From positions 185,380,001 through 185,444,000 of the forward strand of contig OX597814.1 of NCBI GenBank assembly GCA_951406725.2: a stretch of 64,000 bases of DNA, read 5' to 3'. This document shows, piece by piece, positions 7,110 through 64,000 of this stretch. The position numbers and the translations under genes were made by a program. Origin of the DNA: Octopus vulgaris. Taxonomy: Eukaryota. The number at the start of each line of letters is the position of its first letter. Within the stretch, counting starts at the first letter, position 1. A model generated the notes under the pieces. That model saw nothing but the letters and a program-made list of their open reading frames with translations, ran no database searches and was not told the DNA's origin.

Positions 7110-7698
7110 ATTCTTTTCTGCTGTAGGAACAAGGCTCGAAATCTTTTGGCGAGGGGGCCAGTCGATTTGATCGACCCCAGTACGCAACTGGTACTTAATT
7201 TATAGACCCCGAAAAGATGAAAGGCGAAGTCGACGTCGGCGGAATTTGAACTCAAAACGTAAAGACAGATCTCAAAACATAATGACAGACGAAATACCTA
7301 TTTCTTTACTACCCACAAGGGGCTACACACAGAGAAGACAAACAAGAACAGGAAAACGGATCTAAGTCGATTATATCAACCCCAGTGCGTAACTGGTACT
7401 TATTTAATCGACCCCGAAAGTATGAAAGGCAAAGTCGACCTCGGCGGAATTTGAACTCAGAACGTAGTGGCAGACGAAATACTTATTTCTTTACTACCCA
7501 CAAGGGGCTAAACACAGAGAGGACAAACGGATTAAGTCGATTATATCGAGCCCAGTGCGTCGTAACTGGTACTTATTTAATCGACCCCGAAAGGATGAAA
7601 GGCAAAGTCGTCCTCGACAGAATGTGAACTCAGAACGTAGTGGCAGACGAAACACCGCTAAGTATTTCGCCCGGCGTGCTAACGTTTCTGCCAGCTGG
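7110..7698 (-). mobile_element. Head-to-tail multimer (3 units) of Nin-domain tRNA SINE
   Basis: Repeated core GTCGACTTTGCCTTTCATCCTTTCGGGGTCGATWAAWTAAGTACCAG (reverse strand); one full head near 7698, internal units start at (G/A)GTATTTCGTC. Confidence 0.85.
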
Positions 7699-7822
7699 CT
7701 ACGTATACAAACCATTATTAAGACAGCGTTTAGCTAATAAATTTTGTTTAATGTATTTTCATGCTACGTCGTTTTTCCAGTTAGACCGCATGTCTAAGAC
7801 TAATTACCGACGTAAGCTGAGG

Positions 7823-8821
<999 letters not shown>

Positions 8822-12962: not shown

Positions 12963-13020
<58 letters not shown>

Positions 13021-13145
13021 ACAAGGGATACATTGGACAATCTCGTCCCGAACGCTCAGGTGAGACGGTCATGACAGGAACGTCTTGATTATAAGTCTGG
13101 CCGAAGTAGATCTATAATCAAAATAGCAGCAGCAGCAACAGCAGC

Positions 13146-13179
<34 letters not shown>

Positions 13180-13286
13180 CTAACAAGGAATACATTGGAC
13201 AATCTCGTCCCGAATGCTCAGATGGAACGGTCGTGACAGGAACGGCTTGATTATAAGTCTGACCGAAGTAGATCTATAATCAAAAT

Positions 13287-13290
<4 letters not shown>
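13021..13290. repeat. Tandem duplication (~161-bp period) between (AGT)n/(AGC)n tracts
   Basis: ACAAGGRATACATTGGACAATCTCGTCCCGAA...GTAGATCTATAATCAAAATAGCAGC present twice. Confidence 0.85.
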
Positions 13291-13368
<78 letters not shown>

Positions 13369-27416: not shown

Positions 27417-28262
27417 TATATCTTTACTACCCACAAGGGGCTAAACACAGAGAGAACAAACAAGGACAGACAAACGGATTAAGTCGATTATATCGACCTC
27501 CAGTGCGTAACTGGTACTTATTTAATCGACCCCGAAAAGATGAAAGGCAACGTCGACCTTTACTACAACAGAGAGGACAAAGAAGGACAGACAAAGGGAT
27601 TAAGTCGATTATATCGACCCCAGTGCGTAACTGGTACTTAATTTATCGACCTCGAAAGGATGAAAGGCAAAGTCGACCTCGGCGGAATTTGAACTCACAA
27701 CGTAATGGCAGACGAAATACCGCTAAGTATTTCGCCCGGCGTGCTAACCATTCTGCCAGCTCGCCGCCTTTTTAATGATTCTTATTTCTTTACTGCCCAC
27801 AAGGGGCTAAACATAGAGGGGAGAAACAAGGACATACAAACGGATTGAGTCGATTATATTGACTCCAGTGAGCAACTGGTACTTATTTAATCGACCCCGA
27901 AAGGATGAAAGGCAAAGTCGACCTCGGCGGAATTTGAACTCAGAACGCAGCGACAGGCGAGATACCTATTTCTTTACTACCCACAAGGGGCTAAACACAG
28001 AGAGGACAAACAAGGACAGACAAACGTATTAAGTCGATTACATCGACCCCAGTGAGTAACTGGTACTTATTTAATCGACCCCGAAATGATGAAAGGCAAA
28101 GTCGACCTCGGCGGAATTTGAACTCAGAACGCAGCGACAGGCGAAATACCTATTTCTTTACTACCCCACAAGGGGCGGAATTAGATCTCAGAACGTAACG
28201 GCAGACGAAATACGGTTACGCATTTCGCCCGGCGTGCTAACGTTTCTGCCAGCTCGCCGCCA
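27417..28262 (-). mobile_element. Two adjacent Nin-SINE multimers
   Basis: Full heads ending ~27770 and ~28260; internal junctions AAAGAAATA|GGTAT(T/C)TCG. Confidence 0.85.
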
Positions 28263-39355: not shown

Positions 39356-40125
39356 AATACCTATTTCTTTACTACCCACAAGGGACTAAATACAGAGTGG
39401 ACAAACAAGGACAGACAAACGGATTAAGTCGATTATATCGACCCCAGTGCGTAACTGGTACTTATTTAACCGACCGTGAAAGGATGAAAGACAATGTCGA
39501 CCTGGGCGGAATTTGAACTCAGAACGATGCGGCAGACGAAATACCTATTTCTTTATTACCCACAAGGGGCTATACACAAAGAGGACAAACAAGGACAGAC
39601 AAACGGATTAAGTCGATTATATCGACCCCAGTACGTAACTGGTACTTATTTAATCGACCCCGAAAGGACGAAAGGCAAAGTCGACCTCGGCGGAATTTGA
39701 ACTCAGAACGATGCGGCAGACGAAATACCTATTTCTTTATTACCCACAAGGGGCTATACACAGAGAGGACAAACAAGAACAGACAAACGGATTAAGTCGA
39801 TTATATCGACCCCAGTACGTAACTGGTACTTAATTTATCGACCCCGAAAGGATGAAAGGCAAAGTCGACCTCGGCGGAATTTGAACTCAGAACGATGCGG
39901 CAGACGAAATACCTATTTCTTTATTACCCACAAGGGGCTATACACAGAGAGGACAAACAAGGACAGACAAACGGATTAAGTCGATTATATCGACCCCAGT
40001 ACGTAACTGGTACTTATTTAATCGACCCCGAAAGGACGAAAGGCAAAGTCGACCTCGGCGGAATTCGAAACTTTGAACGTAGCGGCATTTCGCCCGGCGT
40101 GCTAACGATTCTGCCAAGCTCGCCA
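39356..40125 (-). mobile_element. Nin-SINE tetramer, exact 184-bp period
   Basis: TATTTCTTTA unit starts at 39362, 39546, 39730, 39914; one partly deleted head at ~40070-40125. Confidence 0.95.
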
Positions 40126-43972: not shown

Positions 43973-44776
43973 GTTCTTTCTACTATAAACACAAGGCCTG
44001 AAATTTCAGGGAAGGGGACTCGCTGGTTACATCGATCCCAGTGTTCAACTACTCCCTATTTTATAGACCTCGAAAGGATGAAATACAAAATTGACGTCGA
44101 CTGTATTTGAACACAGAACGTAAAAGCGGAAGAAATACTGTTAAGCCTTTTCTTTTTTGTCCGGTGTGCTAATGATTCTTATTTCTATATTGCCCACAAG
44201 GGGCTAAACATAAAGGAGACAAACAAGGACAGACAAAGGGATTAAGTCGATTACATCGACCCCAGTGCTCAACTACTCCCTATTTTATAGACCCCGAAAG
44301 GATGAAAGGTAAAGTCGACCTCGGCGGGTTTGAACTCAGAACGTAATGGCAGACGAAACACCTACTTTTTTCCTACCCACATGGGGCTAAACACAGAGAG
44401 GCCAAACAAGGACAGACAAACGAATTAAGTCGATTATATCGAACCCAGTGCGTAACTGGTACTTATTTAATCGACCCCGAAAGGATGAAAGGCAAAGTCG
44501 ACTTCGGCGGAATTTGAACTCAGAACGATGCGGCAGAAGAAATACTGCAAAGCATTTCGCCCGGAGTGCTAACGATTCTGCCAGCTCACCGCCTTCTAAA
44601 TCATTATATTTAACAGATGTATGAGGGGGAAAGCCGATTACATCGAACCCATTGCTCAACTGATACTTATTTTATCGACCCCGAAATGATTAACTTGTAC
44701 TCAGAATGTAAAGACGGAAGACATGCCGCTAACATTTTTGCATAGCGTACTAATGATTCTGCCAGCTCCCCGCCTT
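43973..44776 (-). mobile_element. Cluster/multimer of Nin-SINE copies of different ages
   Basis: Four CGACCCCGAAAGGATGAAAG-like cores; heads ending ~44595 and ~44776. Confidence 0.8.
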
Positions 44777-48999: not shown

Positions 49000-51900
49000 C
49001 AGTTACCCTGTAGAAAAAGTCCGGCATACTACGATAAAATTCATAGGGCAGACCATCCAGCCTCGGCAACTTGTCCCCGCCGCATTCAGCCAGCACCACC
49101 TTGGCCTCCACAGCTGTGATCGGCCCTTCACAACATTCCGCCTCTCGTGTCGAGAGTCGCGGCCCGCCGGCTCCTCCCCCTTAGTGTCTCCCCACGATCC
49201 GTCGCATCGCTCTCTCCGAACAACCGGGCGAAATGCTGGATAAAAGCCATTCACATCTCCTCTTGTCCTTCGATCTAACGACCCCGCTCGTCAATTAAAG
49301 ACATTATAGAGGCTTCTCTGCCTCTACGACTCTCCACACGATGAGCCCATCCGGCAACGTTAATACCCTCTCTCCCCACTGCACATAACTTAGCCCTGAC
49401 TCTACACCCTTCGTGTTTGGTTTTGAGGTGGCGGAACAAGACCGCCCTTGCTGCCGTCATTCTAGGTGTAGAGCCAGATTCCATAGCCTTGTCTAATTCA
49501 TTAACTAATTGCCCTATTTTAGTCTTTTCTAAACTTAGCTGTTAACTAAATCTAACAGACTCCGAACGAATGGCTCATTTGAAGGCGCACCACCATCTAT
49601 TATTGATGATGGCGTCACATAATGCCCTCTGAACTAATTCCTTAACCTGTGCACGGAAGGCTTTACAAGTCAAAATAGATTTGTTCAGCTTCCAGTGCCC
49701 TGGTCCCTGTCTATGACACTTATCTAGGTACACCTTACGTCACGCATTTGTGATCCGTGTAAGGGACACAGCAGAAGCGTGGACAACTAAAAGTATCCTT
49801 ATCTCTATATCTAATAAATATTCTATCTAGATAAGACCTGTGTGAACCGTCGTTATTAGTCCACGTCCACTGTGGAACGAGCGGTTCATCTAGCCTGTAA
49901 CGGTCTACTAAGTTATAGCTTGTTAGTAGCCTTTTGAGACCAGGATTTCCCCTTCTATTTGCCGAGCCAACACTATCCACCCGTGCATCGAGAATAGAGT
50001 TAAAATCTCCTATTAAAACTAGTCTTAGACGTCACCAAGAAATTCTCTAGGTCCCGAAAAAAAAAACCAGTTTGTCTACACTCCTTATGAACGTAGACAG
50101 CTACCAACCTGAAGGACAGCTTACTTACATGTGTCACATCTAGGACGACCAGCCTATCTTCTGGGTCCAGAAAGACTGTACTTACATGGTGGTTTTCTGA
50201 ATTAAACCACCATGCCCGCGCTTCCCCAACGACTAGGAGAAATAAATTTCTCATAGCCACTTAGAAGAGACGTGAACGCATGTGACTCATTCAAAGTCAC
50301 AACACACATATATCCAAATCTAGTGACCTGAGGTCGTTCAAGAGGCAGGTTTGTTTCCATCTTGACCCCAAGTCACGTACATTTATACACCCTACTTTAA
50401 TCTCCACGAAATAATTAAAAAGGAGAAAGAAACTTACATTTTACGTTTTGGGGAGGGGCTGCACTAATTTGGCAATCTCTCCCACCTTTTTTCTCTGGTG
50501 TGCAGTTTCTGGGTTACACTCCAGTCTCTTCTGGGCCACTTCATTTGTTACATCCAAAATATCGTCCGGATATCTCTTTTTAATCGACTCGCCTATTATT
50601 TTTGCCATCAGAATATTGTTCGGCATGTCCGGCATTCGTTTATATACGAATGCTCCCAGGTGACCGGCCAAAACTTTAGCTATTACCTGGATTTTTTTTT
50701 CGTTAAGCTTGACGTATTTTTCTTTTTGTTCGGTAGGGTTGGTCGAGGATTTCAGTTTGGGAGCGAAATGGGGAATTTTTTTCTTGTGCACCTGCGTGTG
50801 TGGTTATTGCTTTCTTTGTTTGGGGAGGGGAACCAGGGGCTGGGGCTTTTTTCTTTTAAGTGTCACTACAGTATAGTCCATTTCTGGTTGGTTTCCCTGA
50901 GCGCCATCCTGTATTTTATTTTCTTCTTTTTCTGCCTTTTCTGCTTTTTTCACCTCTTCTTTGTTGGTCTCGTTCCTTTTTTTCTTTTTGGGGAGGGACA
51001 ATTTTCTTTTTCTCGGCCTTTTCCATATTTCCCCCCCCTTGCTAGTTTCACTACTTTTTTTTCTTTTTGAAGAGGGACGTCTGCCTTTTTTGTTTTCTTT
51101 TGTTTTGTTTTTTTCACTTTTTCACAATCTGATCTTACCTGACCTCTTTCCCTACACTTGAAACATCTCGTCCTTCTTCCTTCTACCGAGACTCGGACAC
51201 TTAGTCTCTCTCCTATGAAAATTCTGTCCGGCCTCGATTCTAATATTTCGTTTGGGGCCCGTATCAAAACCGCCAGCGTTTGGCCTCTCTAGTTTATAGC
51301 CTTTCTCCTCATCTATAATATTGTTATCTCATCCTCTGCGTCATAGATGACCGCCGTAGCCATCCATGACACCTCATACCCATTTGGTATCTCTTCAATA
51401 GTGATTTTTGCCGTCCTTCTTCCTAGGTATGTTGGAAGCAGGATTATTTCCTCGTTCTTCAAGGTCTGTGTTGAAACTTGTTTCGCCGTTTCGGCATCTT
51501 TAAAGTTGCGCCTCTACTGCAGCGCTTCGAACTTCTCTTCCTATATATACAATTTTACCCCATATGGGCGCCAAGCATTTTTCAACAGTTTCGTTTTTGG
51601 TGGGCGTGATTTTTTTCCCTTTCTACAGTAAATTTTATAAATTACCATTTTTGCTGACAAATTCTGTACTATCTCCTGTGGTGGCATCGGCTTAGTATCA
51701 TTTAGTATCATTTCCGGTTTCTTTTTTTTTTTTTTTTAGGTTTCGAAAACTGAACAATTGTTCTCTCGAAAAATTTATTTCCGTGAAGTTACCTCCGACG
51801 GCTGCTGAGAAACTTGGTTTTTCACTAACATTTTCTTTTCCAGTATCTCCTTTCATTGCAGGAAAAGTCTTCATTTGGCTTTAAGTCAAACTCCATATTT

Positions 51901-53964: not shown

Positions 53965-55090
53965 ATAGTTGTTGCTGTTGTTGTTTCTAGTGGTGGTGTT
54001 GGTGGTTGTGGTCGTGGTGGTGGTGGTAGTGGTGGTGGTGGGGTGGTAGTGGTGGGGGTGGTAGTGGTGGTGGTGGTGGTAGTGGGACCGTCATAGTCAT
54101 CATCATCATCATCATCATCACTACCACCACCACCACCACCACTGTCAATGTCATCGTCAACCAACCACATCATTATCAGCCACATCACGACCATCACTAC
54201 CAGTATTACTGTGATCATCACCATCATCATCACCATCATCATCATCGTTATTATTGTCACCTTCTTACTCATCACCCTAGTCGTCCTCATCAACATCTTC
54301 ATCCTCATCATTATCATCATCATCATCATCATCATCATCTTCTTCTTCTTCATCATCATCATCATCGTCATCCACTTCCTCCTCCTCTTCCTCATCTTCC
54401 TCATCTTCCTCATCTTCCTCATCTTCATCATCTTCATCATCATCCTCTTCCTCCTCTTCCTCCTCTTCATCATCTTCGTCATCGTCCTCTTCCTCATCAT
54501 CCTCCTCCTCATCCTCATCTTCATCATCTTCGTCATCGTCCTCTTCCTCATCATCATCCTCCTCTTCCTCATCTTCATCATCTTCGTCATCGTCCTCTTC
54601 CTCATCATCATCCTCCTCTTCCTCATCTTCATCATCTTCGTCATCATCCTCTTCCTCATCATCATCCTCCTCTTCCTCATCTTCATCATCTTCATCATCT
54701 TCATCATTATCATCTTCATCATCATCATCCTCCTCTTCCTCATCATCTTCATCTTCATCATCATCATCTTCATCATCATCCTCATCCTCATCATCATCAT
54801 CTTCATCATCATCCTCATCCTCATCATCATCATCATCGTCATTATCAACACGACCACCACCACCACCGCCACCACCACTACCACCATCACAACCACCACC
54901 ACCACCACCACCATCATCGCCTCCATCTCTTGCCACTGCCATTCAACAGTACTGCCACCACTGCCATTTCCACCACTGCCGCCACTACAGCAGTCACACC
55001 CTTCCTCACCACCACCACCATCACCACCACCACCACCACCACTGCCATCACTGCCATCTCAACCACCCCCACACCCACCACCACCACTCC
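53965..55090. repeat. Compound trinucleotide block; (TCA/TCC/TCT)n core with a 54-bp higher-order repeat
   Basis: CGTCATC(G/A)TCCTCTTCCTC recurs at 54477, 54531, 54585, 54639. Confidence 0.9.
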
Positions 55091-55439
55091 ATTCACTGTC
55101 CCCTGTACTAGCCCTTACACTAATAGTTCAGTCACCAACATCATTCATATCTCATTGTTTTTGTTGTTACATCTTTCTTTTTTCCTCTTTACTAATTCTT
55201 GCTGTTGTTGTTGCGGTTGTTGTCTTTCCCATCACCACTCCTCCTTCTTCTGGTCTTCTGCTTCCCGCTTCTTCCACATCTTGAAGCATCTCCTCCTACC
55301 ATTATATGTGCTTGCTTTACAAATCATCTTCCCTTTCTCTCCCTCTCTCTGTCTCTGTCTCTGACTCTCTCCTTCCCTCCCGCCCCCCTCCATCTCACAC
55401 CTTTCTGCCAATATCTGTGTATATGCATGTATGAATTTG

Positions 55440-55558
55440 AGGGTTTATGCATGTACACTACACACACACACACACACACACACAGAGTCACACATACACA
55501 CATGCATGCACACACATATATGCATGCAGAAATAATCACACATTTTTATTAATATATA

Positions 55559-55625
<67 letters not shown>

Positions 55626-56004
55626 CATATATGTACATACATACAAAAAAATATTTATGCATTTATAAACATACACGCATATATATATATATATATATAT
55701 ACACATGTACATATATACACATATACATATATATATATATACATATATATATTTACATAAAATATAGATCAATGTTACACACACATACATTCATGCATAT
55801 ATACATATATATAAATCTATGTATAAATGTATGTGTGTGTATATATATAATATATATATATATGCATATATAAATCTATCTATATATACATGTACACACA
55901 CACATATATATGTATATACATATGTACATGTTTATATATACAAACATATGCATACATATATATAGATATATACATGTAGATATACACACACACACACACA
56001 CATA

Positions 56005-56056
<52 letters not shown>

Positions 56057-56154
56057 TATATTTATATTTATATTTAGATAAAATATAGATCAATATGTCA
56101 GAGACACAAACAGATATTTATGTATTTAAATATATATATGTGTATATATGTGTA

Positions 56155-56245
<91 letters not shown>

Positions 56246-56634
56246 CACTTACTCTATACAGTCTAAGCTCTAAAGAATGTGGTGTCCCCCACCAACACCA
56301 CCAGGCATTTTTTCCTGATTTGCTTTTGCTTTATTAATTTCTTCTGTTGTTGTCATCAAATTCCTCTTATATTTCGCTTTTTCTCTATCTATTTTTTCTC
56401 CATAATTTCATTTCATTCCTATCTATTCGTAAATGTATGAAACACACCTCCCAATATATATACATATGTGTGTGTGTGAGTGTTTATGCGTATGTATGTA
56501 TGTATGTATGTATATGTATGTATGCATATAAATATTTATAAAATACTTTCTACATATGTGCATATATTATACACATTTATGTGCATATGTGTGCATGTGC
56601 GTGTGCATGCATGTTGTATGTATATATATAACGA

Positions 56635-56673
<39 letters not shown>

Positions 56674-56750
56674 GTGTGTATATATATATGTATATGTGTA
56701 TGTATGTATGTATGTATATATATATATACATATATCTATCTATCTATCTA

Positions 56751-56789
<39 letters not shown>

Positions 56790-56850
56790 ATATATATATG
56801 TACATATATATATGTATATATATGCACACTCACACACATGCATAAATGCT
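55440..56850. repeat. (TA)n/(CA)n/(TATG)n compound microsatellite region
   Basis: Directly visible. Confidence 0.9.
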
Positions 56851-56984
56851 CAAACATGCATACCTGCTATTTATTAGAAAACAGGTTATATCATATTGCT
56901 TACAACATTTTAATGTATTGCTAATTTATACATGAAGAGCAAAACCAAAATCAAACTCTTAAAAAGGAAAATAATGTATATATA

Positions 56985-57460
56985 TCATCATCATGATCAT
57001 CCTCAATTAAAGTCCGCTTTCCATGCTAGCATGGGTTGGACGATTTGACTGAGGACTGGCGAACCAGATAGCTGCACCAGGCCCCAATCTTGATCTGGCA
57101 GAGTTTCTATAGCTGGATGCCCTTCCTAATGCCAAACACTCCAAGAGTGTAGTGGGTGCTTTTATGTGCCACCAGCACGAGGGCCAGTCAGGTGGTACTG
57201 GCAATGGCCATGCTCAAATGGTGTTTTTTACGTGCCACCTGCACAGGAGCCAGTCCAGCGACACTAGTAACGACCTTGCTCAAATGTTTTTTCACATGCC
57301 ACTGGCACAAGTGCCAGTAAGGTGACACTGGTAACAATCACGTTCGAATGGTGCTTCTTATGTGCCACCGGCACAGACGCCAGTTAGCTGCTCTGGCAAC
57401 GATCACACTCGGATGGTGCTTTTAGTGCTCCACTAGCACGGATGCCAATCATCAAATTTG
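56985..57460 (-). mobile_element. LINE-tail/SINE-like repeat with (ATG)n tail and internal ~57-bp tandem units; same family at 62725-62951 (+)
   Basis: TTAGGAAGGGCA(T/A)CCAGCT...CCAACCCATGCTAGCATGGAAAGCGGAC shared by both copies. Confidence 0.7.
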
Positions 57461-57482
57461 ATTTTATATATATATATATATA

Positions 57483-57655
57483 TAAAGGGAAAGTTTACGA
57501 AAATAAACAAAAGACGAAGGCAGATGTATCAGGTGTATCAGTATAGCGCTCAGGAATAGAAAAAGTCTTTTACATTTCGAGCCTACGCTCTTCTACAGAA
57601 AGATACACAGAAAAAAACAAGGAGAGAAAAAAATGTGTGTAGTAGCTAAAAATCT
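57483..57655 (-). mobile_element. ~200-bp variant-hammerhead element (core 57566-57603)
   Basis: Reverse strand TCTTT-CTGTAGA-a-GAGCgtagGCTC-GAAATG-TA-AAAGA; within (TA)n. Confidence 0.6.
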
Positions 57656-57818
57656 TATATACATAGACATTAAAGAATTTTCAGGATTAAAGGTATAAAT
57701 GTAAAAATGAAATATATACAGGTAACTATGACAACAATAACAAGCACATTTGACACACGAAATTTTTTTTTAAATGCATATTCCAAAGAATAATAGATAC
57801 TCAAAGGTCCAGGTACTT

Positions 57819-57869
57819 CTGGCTGATGAAACAGATAATGTCGAAACACCAGCATCCTGATGTACACAG
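57819..57869 (+). ncRNA. Type-I hammerhead motif with extended helix III
   Basis: ctgg-CTGATGA-aACAgataaTGTc-GAA-ACACCAG-catc-CTGATGT-A-cacag; helix III 6 of 7 bp. Confidence 0.55.
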
Positions 57870-57931
57870 CAGTAATTAGCAGATAAGCTTTGAAATCTGC
57901 CAGAATGCATTAAGAATAAATATACCCATTT

Positions 57932-58288
57932 TTTACTCTCTTACTTGTTTCAGTCATTTGACTGCAGCCATGCTGAAGCACCACCTTTAGTCGAGCAAAT
58001 CAACCCCAGGACTTATTCTTTGTAAGCCTAGTACTTATTCTATCGAACTCTTTTGCCGAACTGCCAAGTTACGGGGATGTAAACACACCAGCATTGGTTG
58101 TCAAGCGATATTGGGGGGACAAACACAGACACACAAACATATACACACACATACATATACATATATACGACAGGCCTCTTTCAGTTTCCATCTACCAAAT
58201 CCACTTACAAGTTTTTGGTCGACCATGCAGTGGGACTGAACCCGGAACCATGTGGTTCATAAGCAAGCTACTTACCACACAGCCACTA
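57932..58288 (-). mobile_element. TGGCTGTGTGG-family SINE (internally deleted)
   Basis: Reverse-strand head and TGACTGAAACAAGTAAGAGAGTAAA tail. Confidence 0.85.
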
Positions 58289-58735
58289 TGTTTATCATTG
58301 TTTCAGAAAACTTGCTGCTTGCAGTGCAAATAATTTTTTTTTTGTCAGTTCGTAGATATATGCACTGATCAGAAAAACAGTTTTGTTCGTTGAAATTATA
58401 ACCCGATCTAGTGGTCTCTTTAGGCTCAAAAGGTCCAGCTACTTCTAGCTTATGAGACAACATGTCAAAACATAAGTGTCCCACAATCCCTTGTGCTAAT
58501 GAGCCATGCGTGTTATGAAAGCGTCTTCATCATAAATTGTAGAAATTGTTCTCTTGTGACATATACAACAACAACTAGCATATTTGCATTTAAACATGCT
58601 GAAATGTATTCAGATAAATGTGCTAGTCAACAATTCAGATTTCCTTGTATACAATGAAAATAATGATTTATTCACAGTTTATTAGAAAATATAAAAATTA
58701 CTCCAATACAGAATAATATAATAATTAGCAGTATA

Positions 58736-59405
58736 CGCGCAGGAGTGGCTGTGTGGTAAGTAGCTTGCTTACCAACCACATGGTTCTAGGTTCAGTCCTA
58801 CTGCGTGGCACCTTGGGCAAGTGTCTTCAACTATAGTCTCGGGCCGACTAAAACCTTGTGAGTGGATTTGGTAGATGGAAACTGAAAGAAGCCTGCCTTA
58901 TATATGTATATATATATATATTTCTATACTACCCACAAGGGGCTAAACATAGAGGGGACAAACAAGGACAGACATAGGTATTAAGTCGATTACATCGACC
59001 CCAGTGCGTAACTGGTACTTAATTTATTGACCCCAAAAGGATGAAAGGCAAAGTCGACCTCGGCAGAATTTGAACTCAGAATGTAACGACAGACGAAATA
59101 CCGCTAAGCATCTCGCCCGACGTACTAACGTTTCTGCCAGCTCGCCGCCTTTGTATATATATATATATATGTGTGTGTGTGGGGAGGGGGTGTATGTTTG
59201 TGTGTCTGTGTTTGACTCCCCCACCAACATCACTTGGCAACTGATACTGGTGTGTTTACGTCCCCGTAACTCAGCGGTTTGACAAAAGAAACTGATAGAA
59301 TAAGTACTAGGCTTACTAAGTCCTGGGGTCAATTTGCTCAACTAAAGGTGGTGCTCCAGCATGGCCACAGTCAAATGACTAAAACAAGTAAATGAGTAAA
59401 AGAGA
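58736..59405 (+). mobile_element. TGGCTGTGTGG-family SINE with a Nin-SINE monomer (58918-59151, minus) nested in its (TA)n
   Basis: Head 58736-58900, 3' half 59195-59405; nested element has full head AAGGCGGCGAGCTGGCAG. Confidence 0.85.
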
Positions 59406-59612
59406 GTATAGAGTAATATTAAATATCTGAGTGTGATATAAACAGTAGCAATATGGAATCATGACATATAATTGCCAACAAAGTGTGGCGTCCTATAAGG
59501 GACAGTGCTACTAACATTTATAACCTCTTCCAGCTGGCTAACGACACACATTCTGTGTCTGATTAGTATTTGTGAGGGGAGGTCATCACTCTCATCTCTA
59601 GCCTTACGTGAT

Positions 59613-59659
59613 ACATACAGACTCGAGTTTCTGGGTGATTACCCATCCTCAGTGTGTGT
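59613..59659 (-). ncRNA. Type-I hammerhead ribozyme
   Basis: Reverse strand ACACACA-CTGAGGA-TGGGTaatcACCCA-GAAA-ctcgag-TC-TGTATGT (6 of 7 bp stem I). Confidence 0.8.
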
Positions 59660-60004
59660 TAATCACCAGCTAGTGATAAAAACTCACTCCACTCAAAAAA
59701 TGCTAGATGCTTTTTCTCGCGACAAACTGTCGCTGATCTTCAAAAAGGAGAAATAAGCTATATTAAATCTCTGAGCGAGATGCAAGCAATAGCAATACAG
59801 AATCATAACAAATAATTACCAACTAAATGTAGCATCCTATACAGGACAGAGCCACTGACGTTTATAGCCCCAGGAAGACATCTCTTACTACTGGCTAATA
59901 ACACATATTCTGTGTCTGATTAGTATTTCAGCAATGGTTTGTTGCTGGAAAAAGCATATAGTATTTTGTGAGTGGAATAAGTTTATATCACTAGCTGGTG
60001 ATTA

Positions 60005-60051
60005 ACACATGCTGAGGATGGGTAACCACCCAGAAACTCGAGTCCATGTGT
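60005..60051 (+). ncRNA. Type-I hammerhead ribozyme, intact core, GUC cleavage triplet
   Basis: ACACATG-CTGAGGA-TGGGTaaccACCCA-GAAA-ctcgag-TC-CATGTGT: 7-bp stem I, 5-bp stem II, palindromic helix III ACTCGAGT; predicted cut after 60044. Confidence 0.88.
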
Positions 60052-60089
60052 ATCATGTAGGGCTAGGGACGGGAACATTATAATTGTTT

Positions 60090-60295
60090 ATAATTTAGAC
60101 TCAAGGCCAGCAGTTTTTGTGTGGACATATTTATTCAATACCACAAAACCCATTATATTTGACTGATGTTCGATTTTTATTGTCCCCTGAATAGATGAAA
60201 GACAAATTTGATCTCAGTCAGATTTGAACTCAGAAGGTAAAGAACCAGAATACCACAAGACATGATGCTTTAATTACTCTGCCACTTCACCACTC
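60090..60295 (-). mobile_element. Old Nin-type SINE remnant
   Basis: GATGAAAGACAAATTTGATCTCAGTCAGATTTGAACTCAGAA matches the Nin/B-box region. Confidence 0.55.
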
Positions 60296-60328
60296 CACTC
60301 TAAATAATACAAAAACTAACAACAGCAA

Positions 60329-60378
<50 letters not shown>

Positions 60379-60404
60379 GCTGCTGCTGCTGCTGCTGCTG
60401 CTGC

Positions 60405-60462
<58 letters not shown>

Positions 60463-60465
<3 letters not shown>

Positions 60466-60760
60466 GCCTTGTGAGTGGATTTGGTAGATGGAAACTGAAA
60501 GATGCCTGTCGTATATATGTATATATATATGTGTGTGTGTGTGTGTACATGTTTGTGTGTCTGCGTTTGTCCCCCCCCCCCAACATCGCTTGACAACCGA
60601 TGCTGGTGTGTTTATATCCCCATAACTTAGTGGTTCGGCAAAAGAGACCGATAGAATATGTACTAGGCTTACAAAGAATAAGTCCTAGGGGCAATTTGCT
60701 CGATTAAAGGTGGTGCTCCAGCATGGCCACAGTCACATGACTGAAACAAGTAAAAGAGTA
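60463..60760 (+). mobile_element. 5'-truncated TGGCTGTGTGG-family SINE
   Basis: AAAGCCTTGTGAGTGGATTTGG to TGACTGAAACAAGTAAAAGAG, within (TAA)n. Confidence 0.85.
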
Positions 60761-60782
60761 ATAATAGTAAGAATAAAAAATT

Positions 60783-61650
60783 TTTCTTTATCAGCCACAA
60801 AGGTTTGAAAAGATACAGAAAATTACAAAGAAATATTAAATGGGAGTCCTATAAAAACGTTGGGTATGTGACAGAGAAGTTATAGAAAGACAAGAGAAGA
60901 GATGAATGAGGTTATATGATATATAGTTGAACAAATTTATAAACCACAAATATTTACAAAGAATAAATAAAAATGTACAACAAAATACAATAATCAAAAA
61001 CAGGATGTCTATGTGAAAATTATATGTCAATTTGCATTGAAAAGTTTGAAAAGTTCTTTCAACAAGAATAACTTGCTTTAACTGAATTTCTGTTAAAAAA
61101 CATTATGGTAACTCTACTTCATCATGAAAATTTAAATAGATACAATTTAGGAAGTCTCTAGCAATATTTATTTTATACACTTCAATTATAGACTGCATTA
61201 TACCAGAAGTCTGACAGAACTTTGTTGACATTTCATGATATACTTTACTATTAAGAAATAAATAAAAAGATAAATACAACAATTTTAATGCGTTCTTTTG
61301 TAACTAAATTAACTCTCCCATAATCTAATTTCAGTTTCAACATATGGTCACAGTTCAAGTGAGTTGCCAAGTACAACTCCAAAATTTTTCATTAGCTGTT
61401 TGGTAAGGTTACTTGTTTCTAAATTTAATATTGGATTAAAAAAATTAAGCATCAACTGAAACTGACAAACCTGTTTCAGTAAATAGTTTTACGAGGTTTT
61501 TTCAAATTTATCTAATCCATGATGGTTCTTATTTTGCAAAACAAAAAGATCATCATCTCTATATAGCCCTCTTCCAATGATCAGAAACAGTTAATGCAAA
61601 AGGTTCAAAATATTAATTCTAATAATTTTAGATAGTTCTGTCCCATCATA
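60783..61650 (-). mobile_element. Possible ancient L1/Tx1 3' region
   Basis: Terminal TCTTTATCAGCCACAAAGG...AAATTACAAAG resembles the 14880 LINE end; body too decayed to translate convincingly. Confidence 0.3.
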
Positions 61651-61733
61651 TGATACCAATCAAAGCATCAAACAAATCATTTTTACCTCAAGATGTTATT
61701 GAAAAAAAAAGACATTTTTTTGTGTGTATAATT

Positions 61734-62424
61734 ATCTCAATCTTTAATATAAAAGTCAATGTCTTTATGTGTGTTCATGTGTTTGTGTGTTTATATGTTA
61801 CTTATAGACTCAAAAACTACTGGACTGATCCCAATGAAATTTGGAACACAAAATCCAAGCCTAGGGTGAAGGGTAATGCCATATGTCTCATACAATTTTG
61901 AGTGGGCATAAAGTGGGGCAGAACACCCCCTGTGAAAATTCATATTCTTCGGATTTTGATGAAATTTGAACCATAAGTATTAGAAATAAATTTTAAGATA
62001 TACCCAGAATTTCCATTTCTTTGGATGATTCTAAGATCCCTTAATGAGGGATTAACCCCCAAATTTTAGTCATTTTTCATGGACCAAAATTACTGAATGG
62101 ATCCTTATGATATTTGAAACTTAGATTTAATGCATAAGAGCATGTAATATGCAGTATATTTGGTTTGAATATGAGGGTAATAGGTAATTGACACAAATCA
62201 CTTCTCATGAGGATTCTAAGACTCCCAAATTTTAGTAATTTTTTTATAATCCAAAACAAGGTCAAAAGTACTGACTGGGTCTTTACAAAATTTAGAAATT
62301 ATATTCTATGCATAAGGGTAGATGTAATGCAGTATATGTTTGAAAGTGAGGGGGCATAAATGAGGCCATAACCCCAATGAAAATTCATATATTTTTGCTG
62401 TTGATGAAATTTTAACCATAGGTA
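61734..62424 (+). mobile_element. Helitron/Helentron-associated (DINE/HINE-like) element with internal diverged repeats
   Basis: TCT..TATAAAAG start, GT-rich tract, AAAACTACTGGACTGATCCCAATGAAATTTGG core; repeated GGGCATAAA..TGAAAATTCATAT..GATGAAATTT units. Confidence 0.55.
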
Positions 62425-62957
62425 TGAGACACTTGTCCAAGGTGCCACGCATTGGGACTGAACCCAGAACCATGTGGTTGGTAAGTAAGCTACTTACTGC
62501 AAAGCCACTCCTGTGCCTATATATATATGTACATATTATTTAATAAACACAATATCTCTTTTTATGAGCTACCAATAGTTTTATGTGATGAAAAACAGCT
62601 CAGACAGCATTTTATGACACATCTGGTGCCTTCACTCAATCCTCAGGCTCTGCTGACATGGCATCAATTATATAATCATACACACACTCAAACAAACACA
62701 CATCCACACACATGCATAAAACACCATTTGAGCATGGCCATTGCCAGTACCGCTTGACTGGCCCTCGTGCCAGTGGCACATAGAAACACCCACTACACTC
62801 TCAGAGTGGTTAGCGTTAGGAAGGGCAACCAGCTGTAGGAACTCTGCCAGATTAGATTGGAGCCTGGTGCAGCCATCTGGTTCACCAGTCCTCAGTCAAA
62901 CCATCCAACCCATGCTAGCATGGAAAGCGGACGTTAAACAGTGATGATGATATATAT

Positions 62958-63270
62958 ATCACCGTGATCACCGTGACCGACCAGGCTATCAGATGTTGCT
63001 ACACATCGCTGGTCACAATGCGCTTCACATTGTTTTAGCCTTCAAATGACGCCACCTCGCTGGCTAAGTGAGCAGGCCAACAGAAGAAAGAGTGAAAGAA
63101 AGTTGTGACGAAAGAGTACAGCAGGGATCGCCACCATCCCCTGCCAGAGCCTCGTGGAGCTTTAGGTGTTTTCCCTCAATAAACACTCATAACGCTTGAT
63201 CTGGGAATCAAAACCGTGATCCTACAACCACAAGTCCGCTGCCTTAACCACTGGGCCATTGTGCCTCCAC
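62958..63270 (-). mobile_element. tRNA-derived SINE (family of 6551-6835)
   Basis: Reverse-strand head GTGGAGGCACAATGGCCCAGTGG, (CACGGTGAT)2 tail, within (TA)n. Confidence 0.85.
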
Positions 63271-64000
63271 ATATATATATACATACATATACACATATTA
63301 GTAATACTAGTATCCATATTACATGGTCCCTTTTTCTGATTCAGTGTCAGTCATGAGCATCTCCTCACTCCCCACTCAATAATAATGTCCTGTCATTTAA
63401 CTTCATAATCCTTTGATATAATTTCTGGGAGATCTTGTATATACTCTTTGGTCATGTCTTCTCTTGGAGCTTGTTTTCTTCATCTAGTTTTTGCAAAACA
63501 TTCATGCTGATCATCATCATCATTCACATTCTGTCTTCTTTCTTGACTAGTAATTCTCACCTCCCTCCCATATTTGCTTCAGTTTCATTGTTCCTCACAT
63601 AACACCTCATATCTCTATTTCTTACATAAATTTAATTATTTTCCCCCCTGAGTAAATGCTTCTCATCATTTCTGATTCTCCTCTCTTCATTCCTAATTCT
63701 TATATCTTTACTTTGTCCTTTCCCCAACCTTACCCTATATCTTCTCTGATTCTCTTGTGTCAATTCTCACTGCTGCGCTCAATGATCACTGTCTACCATA
63801 ACGCACCAAATTCCATTTCAGTAATAAAATAATTTAAAAAGTATTTAATATTGTATACCCAGTGATACCATCTCGATGACGTACTATCACACTTCTTCTA
63901 TGAAAAGAGTTAACAATGCAGTTATCAATATATAGATAGTTGGAAAAACTCTGCATCTAATATTATTATGCACATTTTACAGAGTAATTTAGAAATACAA

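Follow-up and report, generated by a model that had tools for sequence, protein, structure and literature searches.

How did two hammerhead ribozyme motifs come to lie on opposite strands of one short repeat in the genome of Octopus vulgaris, and to which kind of element do they belong? The repeat sits in a stretch of 64,000 nucleotides of contig OX597814.1 (assembly GCA_951406725.2, positions 185,380,001 to 185,444,000), here called the window, and all positions below are counted from its first letter. The original prediction described a pair of intact hammerheads on opposite strands at 59417–60075 and took them for a non-autonomous, self-cleaving family with a monomer of about 344 nt. We find that the element extends over about 59416–60076, one base further at either end. 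The explanation that we favor, with a probability of roughly 0.6, is that the locus holds an old copy of a non-coding hammerhead tandem repeat, present in many copies and with a unit of 357 bases, likely a non-LTR retrozyme, and that the inversion of its first 148 bases likely happened as a Penelope-type reverse transcriptase (RT) copied and inserted it. The identity of the family, taken by itself, is very probable; given this identity, an inversion at insertion is probable.

The plus-strand motif (60005–60051) has the anatomy of a type I hammerhead: CUGAGGA at 60012–60018, GAAA, a UH cleavage triplet with the predicted cleavage site at C60044, seven of seven pairs in stem I, a 5-bp stem II closed by U-A, and a helix III consisting of 2 bp and a palindromic loop (ACUCGAGU, 60036–60043). 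Core, stems, palindrome and cleavage site had all been predicted, and all of them held. The second type I motif lies on the minus strand at 59613–59659, with its predicted cleavage site at C59620 (−). As anticipated, it keeps the core letters of the plus copy, and the conserved elements CUGANGA, GAAA and the UH triplet are present in both. The word "intact" suits it less well, since stem I forms only six of seven pairs, with a C-A mismatch at 59616; the majority letter of the family contigs (see below) restores this pair. Scanning the whole window on either strand with a motif descriptor returned only these 2 distinct type I hammerheads in 64 kb (cores starting at 60012 on the plus and at 59652 on the minus strand). 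The same scan of 100 block-wise Markov shuffles gave 0.09 motifs on average and 1 at most, with 0/100 reaching 2. The Rfam hammerhead models found no match at E values up to 10 in 59400–60150 or up to 5 in 55000–64000. The pair at the base of helix II, 60019–60032 (59645 and 59632 in the minus copy), is U-A, so that the G10.1–C11.1 pair given as usual for hammerheads in PMC4209133 is absent from both copies. The family majority at 60019 is C (62–79% of depth in the DNA runs). A pyrimidine-purine pair closing helix II is unusual among hammerheads.

Folding predicts that helix I of the plus copy extends over 59988–60069, with a 2-nt bulge followed by segments of 5, 6 and 2–5 bp. The z score of this extension is −2.0 for the plus copy and −3.6 for the minus copy; since the antisense of the minus copy reaches −4.0, the fold has no strand specificity. 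The motif also contains the 2-nt helix I bulge and a 4-nt loop II. Because helix I is predicted to be longer than first noted, the motif is of the canonical type and not of the minimal type that had been proposed. Minimal Penelope hammerheads, as described in PMC4209133, have a helix II of 7–8 bp, a helix I of 4–5 bp and an unpaired base before helix II, whereas at this locus helix II has 5 bp and helix I has 7 bp plus the predicted extensions. The same text presents a short palindromic helix III that requires a dimer as the canonical anatomy of tandem-repeat hammerheads, which act as dimers, and the motif at this locus shares this anatomy. Local folding gives probabilities of 0.93 for helix I and 0.97 for helix II in the plus copy; in the minus copy, helix II also reaches 0.97 and helix I only 0.05. 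Helix III has a probability of 0.0 in the monomer because the core pairs with helix III instead. When two plus copies are folded together, the active double hammerhead scores −34.7 kcal/mol versus −34.2 kcal/mol for two monomers, and the top-scoring cofold of the pair (−40.9 kcal/mol) adopts a different structure.

The locus can be divided into two copies of a segment A (A1 and A2) and two copies of a segment B, of which one carries the minus-strand and the other the plus-strand hammerhead. The order in which these segments belong together can be read from related copies. Contigs assembled from 4 of 24 listed sequencing runs were aligned to 59405–60165 at 80% likeness. Three DNA runs with three organism labels contributed 2136, 1999 and 2884 aligned contigs, of which 1735, 1643 and 2386 are less than 95% alike; these counts include contigs on the neighboring repeat at 60080–60117, and the summed depth is not a copy number. 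The majority letters are identical across the three runs. Judged by these contigs, the family is large, diverged and common to the organisms of the three DNA runs. At 27 of the 36 listed variable positions that have a sister position, the sister copy within the locus carries the family letter, so most differences are private decay. A fourth run, classed as RNA by guess only, provided 46 contigs (39 of them less than 90% alike); two of its listed pieces cross family junctions at a depth of 2–4, which indicates neither expression nor its absence. Exact-pattern motif scans returned 0 matches in metagenome contigs and 0 in viral contigs.

Listed pieces that differ from the locus at many positions cross either end of the minus-strand B: three cross the junction between A1 and this B (59439–59687, 59525–59770 and 59525–59677), and four cross the junction between this B and A2 (59589–59767, 59593–59803, 59639–59928 and 59605–59866). 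A joint from 59881 back by 357 to 59525 occurs in 6, 6 and 7 contigs of the DNA runs and is, among the joints listed, the only one held by 6–7 contigs in each of them. Since family contigs span both the B-to-A and the A-to-B junctions, a 357-nt circle of sequence closes. On the evidence of these contigs, the native unit of 357 nt links A(+) to B(−) in head-to-tail order and bears its hammerhead on the minus strand. The two A repeats of the locus are indeed 344 apart, as had been noted, because a 13-base deletion is private to A1; loose ends at 59525 (41, 48 and 48 contigs) carry the 13 missing bases. The period of the family is 357, and this value replaces the proposed 344-nt monomer. The other part of that claim stands: the junction contigs support a repeat family that carries hammerheads, is non-autonomous and has a monomer of about 350 nt. 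From the native unit it also follows that the sense strand of the repeat, as the contigs order it, is the minus strand and that the plus copy (59929–60076) is the odd, inverted piece, the reverse of what had been assumed.

Read along the minus strand, the locus thus presents the inverted B (59929–60076) followed by A2′, B and A1′ (59928 to about 59416). The array at 59416–59928 (−) contains about 1.45 monomers in the native order A2′-B-A1′, with family contigs across 59571/59572 and 59742–59760. It comprises one full 357-nt monomer (59572–59928, GC 39.8%, no coding match) that carries the hammerhead in native orientation, and a partial second monomer, A1 (59416–59571), with the private deletion near 59522–59525. 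Head to head with this array lies the inverted head (59929–60076 (+)), a 148-nt copy of B that matches 59735–59588 and carries the plus-strand hammerhead. In total the locus holds about 1.93 units with the head flipped. A 10-bp hairpin (59926–59950) is predicted to span the inversion junction 59928/59929. The turn cost the element 16 nt (59572–59587 in register), since the inverted arm stops 32 nt beyond its own cleavage site and the array starts again 49 nt beyond such a site. The outer ends of the element do not fall at one point of the unit: measured from a cleavage site, they lie at +32 and at about +217 nt. Both abut other dispersed repeats, and these neighbors may have erased the true termini. 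On the left, A1 adjoins the tail of a SINE-like repeat (58733–59415 (+), with many copies in the window at 70–91% identity), into whose internal (TA)n tract a further repeat (58920–59151) is nested. On the right, the element borders on a different dispersed repeat, an old copy whose end is AAT-rich (60077–60267; loose ends at 60080 and 60116–60117; 60176–60267 is 71–77% identical to window copies). A search of the near flanks gave neither a target-site duplication nor any word of at least 5 bases common to both; blastn detected no further copy of the unit within the window.

Consistent with the predicted lack of an open reading frame (ORF), none of 130 ORFs scanned in the window (at least 45 aa above 54000 and at least 90 aa elsewhere, low-complexity frames left out) matches RT or GIY-YIG Pfam models, and the 4 ORFs of 45 aa or more in the unit have no Pfam match. 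A search for Pol III promoter boxes by their generally known consensus gave one A-box-like match with a mismatch and no B box.

The sister parts differ by 17–19%: A1 and A2 at 29 of 156 aligned bases (18.6%) plus the 13-base gap, and the B copies at 25 of 148 (16.9%). Conservation is not clearly higher in the hammerheads than in the arms. The hammerheads contain 6 mismatches in 47 positions versus 17 in 98 for the B flanks (Fisher p 0.63; p 0.53 against A and B flanks together), and the visibly greater divergence of the flanking arms in the original prediction is not significant by these counts. The changes in stem I, which the original prediction had called compensatory while allowing for CpG decay, were rejected as a sign of selection. 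The family letters at these four sites fall among the 109 rows beyond the listed ones. All four inner changes are transitions of CpG type, and the unit is depleted in CpG (observed/expected 0.42, with TG at 1.32 and CA at 1.22). A loose end at 60011 in one run (13 contigs) has C before G60011, which makes 60010–60011 a CpG in a related subfamily. Had CG stood at all four sites and decayed, both copies would come out complementary 1 time in 4. For the decayed monomer, predicted self-pairing has a z score of −2.6 as a linear and −2.2 as a circular molecule, the latter 68% paired; 1 of 100 shuffles is as good in each case.

In a whole-locus transcript of either strand, helices I and II have predicted probabilities of 0.0; in this model the B arms pair with each other and bury both ribozymes in one long hairpin. 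A plus-strand RNA that starts inside A2 is predicted to form helix I (0.92) and helix II (0.97), and its motif would need a partner in trans. Since the two motifs are opposite in direction, any one RNA carries only one of them in sense. Because of this, and because the inverted arms pair together, the locus is predicted to no longer work. It is an old and probably inactive copy.

Animal retrozymes measure 150–450 bp with a GC content below 50%, with units of 350–390 in mussel and 330–350 in axolotl (Cervera and de la Pena 2020, PMC7229834, main text). With a non-coding 357-nt unit of 39.8% GC, 1.45 tandem units at the locus and a multi-copy family of period 357, the present repeat falls within this description. 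It also shares the head-to-tail arrangement of non-coding units of about 350 nt, the many dispersed copies, and the single type I hammerhead per unit with its weak palindromic helix III, as far as the main text describes them. It differs in its inverted head, in the pyrimidine-purine closure of stem II and in being an old, broken copy. By analogy, the family probably behaves like, and probably is, an animal non-LTR retrozyme, and the locus is likely a new member of this known class of self-cutting repeats. In the literature searched we found no description of a retrozyme from octopus or another cephalopod; the supplements of PMC7229834 and of a 2026 preprint (Li, Clavereau and Pollet, 10.64898/2026.07.22.740005), subscription papers and repeat databases may list the family. 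The main text of a paper on Octopus vulgaris repeats (PMC13282606) contains neither "ribozyme" nor "hammerhead" (0 occurrences) and describes recently active Penelope families in this species.

The inverted head has its closest counterparts elsewhere. "Inverted" occurs 0 times in the main text of PMC7229834 and once, in a reference title, in that of the 2026 preprint, and in the main texts searched we found no inverted head on a retrozyme array. Inverted 5′ copies, arranged head to head and with palindromes at the junction, are typical of Penelope insertions according to PMC8557442 and PMC3846280. Like the insertions of endonuclease-bearing Penelope-like elements described there, the locus combines a partial tandem with an inverted copy placed head to head at the 5′ end, a hairpin at the junction, and a hammerhead near the end of the inverted arm. 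Unlike them, it lacks an ORF, a mirror direct arm beside the inverted arm and a visible target-site duplication, and its hammerhead is not minimal. Both outer ends of the canonical Penelope layout, as far as these texts go, are 3′ ends with an optional tail of 30–40 bp, in contrast to +32 and about +217 here. By its sequence, the locus is not an autonomous Penelope element.

Twin-priming 5′ inversions also occur in LINE-1. The resemblance lies in the sense part, which starts again 16 nt downstream from the outer edge of the inverted piece; the differences are the missing poly(A) tail and the tandem template. With its missing mirror arm and differing outer ends, the geometry is not that of the canonical Penelope layout and resembles twin priming, so that a later local inversion is a real rival. 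The head of the same retrozyme-like family member would then have been flipped after insertion by a local inversion or by a template switch during replication, or an arm of a palindrome would have been deleted later, with the insertion mechanism uninvolved. This would agree with the outer ends, with a geometry equivalent to a clean inversion in place with a loss of 16 nt, and with a unit that is self-complementary around the hammerhead and has a 10-bp hairpin across the junction. We nevertheless regard it as unlikely, given that the A and B pairs are diverged to nearly the same degree, as expected for one event, and given four listed joints that point to inversions at other points of the family. 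These joints (59482/59666, 59556/59960, 59607/59692 and 59877/60005, 4 among the 15 listed, with 204 others) hint at inversions in other family copies; three of them were seen in two runs, each in one contig per run, and two of the four could be deletion alleles of this same locus. A further joint, 59744/59928, was discarded as support for inversion, because the mapping of an ordinary family junction onto the plus copy explains it most simply. Less probable still is that the pieces are truncated pseudo-LTRs (pLTRs) of a coding Penelope-like element with long copies elsewhere in the genome. B is of pLTR size, with a hairpin at the 5′ end; such elements typically have inverted 5′ copies (PMC8557442, as cited above), and Penelope-related dual hammerheads are reported on opposite strands, 100–700 bp apart, in Schistosoma (PMC4209133). 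The same A, however, flanks B on both sides and family contigs cross both junctions, which leaves no room for an ORF. The helix sizes are canonical where Penelope hammerheads are minimal, no RT or GIY-YIG match exists among the 130 ORFs, and only 9–10% of the aligned DNA contigs run on into unlike sequence. Of the 24 loose ends listed, every one that the DNA runs place within the unit is similar to the unit itself, and none marks a fixed end or an exit into an ORF body or other longer body; the large pile-ups with mixed flanks, at 60080 and 60116–60117, lie outside the unit. Another 1176 loose ends exist beyond these 24, which leaves some room for the pLTR alternative. A mini LTR element with A as its terminal repeat was also considered and dropped, as the listed loose ends show no mixed-flank pile-up at the ends of A.

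Two other alternatives appear very improbable to us. Selection might keep both hammerheads as a working pair, either as a sense/antisense self-cleaving switch or as a co-opted host element. This idea draws on the 33-nt core with stems II and III, which is nearly the same in both copies (1 mismatch in 33; p 0.013–0.025 for that window alone), and on the predicted folding of helices I and II in a plus transcript starting inside A2. Yet some equally good 33-nt window arose in 32% of 20,000 permutations, the stem-I changes are all of CpG type with a 1 in 4 chance of decaying in opposite directions, the stem-I mismatch of the minus copy is private, and whole-locus transcripts are predicted to bury both motifs. 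With about as little credence, the inverted junction might be an assembly artefact that fused two separate family copies. None of the pieces listed (32 of 7527) crosses 59928/59929. Against a fusion, the B copies share 3 letters off the family majority, one of them outside a CpG context, which points to one source molecule; the gap at the turn is an orderly 16 nt, and four runs of four studies contain 49–67% of the sampled words of the stretch.

A retrozyme copy with a head inverted at insertion could have arisen as follows. By the example of published retrozymes (PMC7229834, main text), arrays would be transcribed and then cut at each hammerhead, two motifs sharing the 8-base palindrome as helix III of the dimer, and the 357-nt monomers would be closed into circles. 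A borrowed Penelope RT/endonuclease may have copied a multimer or a circle, and a second priming or a strand switch 32–49 nt past the cleavage site could then have produced the head-to-head inversion, as the Penelope insertion layouts in PMC8557442 and PMC3846280 suggest. Each half has since decayed, to the divergence of 17–19% now observed. Several findings stand against this course of events. The 2026 preprint, in its main text, calls a retrozyme "active" when at least 2 consecutive units have complete same-strand hammerheads, and no two hammerheads at this locus share a strand. The two outer ends do not coincide within the unit, and the flanks yielded no target-site duplication. The listed contig pieces are no longer than one unit and do not confirm 59928/59929, and the inversion-type joints amount to one contig per run. 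The best cofold is not the active dimer, and stem II closes with U-A where the family majority has C.

A broader proposal, which we put forward tentatively and at somewhat less than even odds, is that this retrozyme family gains a new Penelope-type inverted head with every insertion, the point at which it forms varying along a circularly permuted 357-nt unit. The enzyme that mobilizes animal retrozymes has been argued from co-occurrence and from pLTR phylogeny (main texts of PMC7229834 and the 2026 preprint). If true, the structure of the copies would itself be direct evidence that multimers or circles of retrozymes are copied into the genome by Penelope enzymes. Such evidence would go further than a common distribution and phylogeny, and it would come from a lineage from which the literature searched reports no retrozyme. 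A family that bears the inverted-head mark of Penelope and has mappable turn points and ends would make the mobilizing enzyme testable by junction counts. Tandem-repeat pipelines that demand two same-strand hammerheads would miss such a locus.

The window contains other repeats. A dispersed SINE-like repeat, present also at 7300–7699 and 58920–59151, occurs singly and in head-to-tail arrays of a 183–184 bp unit (39356–40069, 27783–28176 and 44193–44527; 3.9, 2.1 and 1.8 copies with 85–95% matches), in which the unit is without about 48 bases found at one end of the single form. A scan of these arrays for type I hammerheads found no motif. A candidate host exon at 63179–63340 was rejected: its Pfam match to an amiloride-sensitive channel is weak (E 2e-4, under the cut-off), the frame consists of microsatellite and repeat sequence, and it matched 1 protein in 1.84 billion. 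An ORF fragment at 49738–50031 (−) matches Exo_endo_phos in Pfam (E 1.1e-5) and is probably the remnant of a LINE endonuclease. Diverged direct repeats at 61812–62429, with spacings of 178–185, 273 and 445–448 bases, are possibly another old tandem or transposon remnant. A 66-bp unit is repeated in 4 tandem copies at 57160–57423 (73% matches), and tandem duplications with periods of 250 and 162 surround microsatellites at 7829–8453 and 12984–13341.
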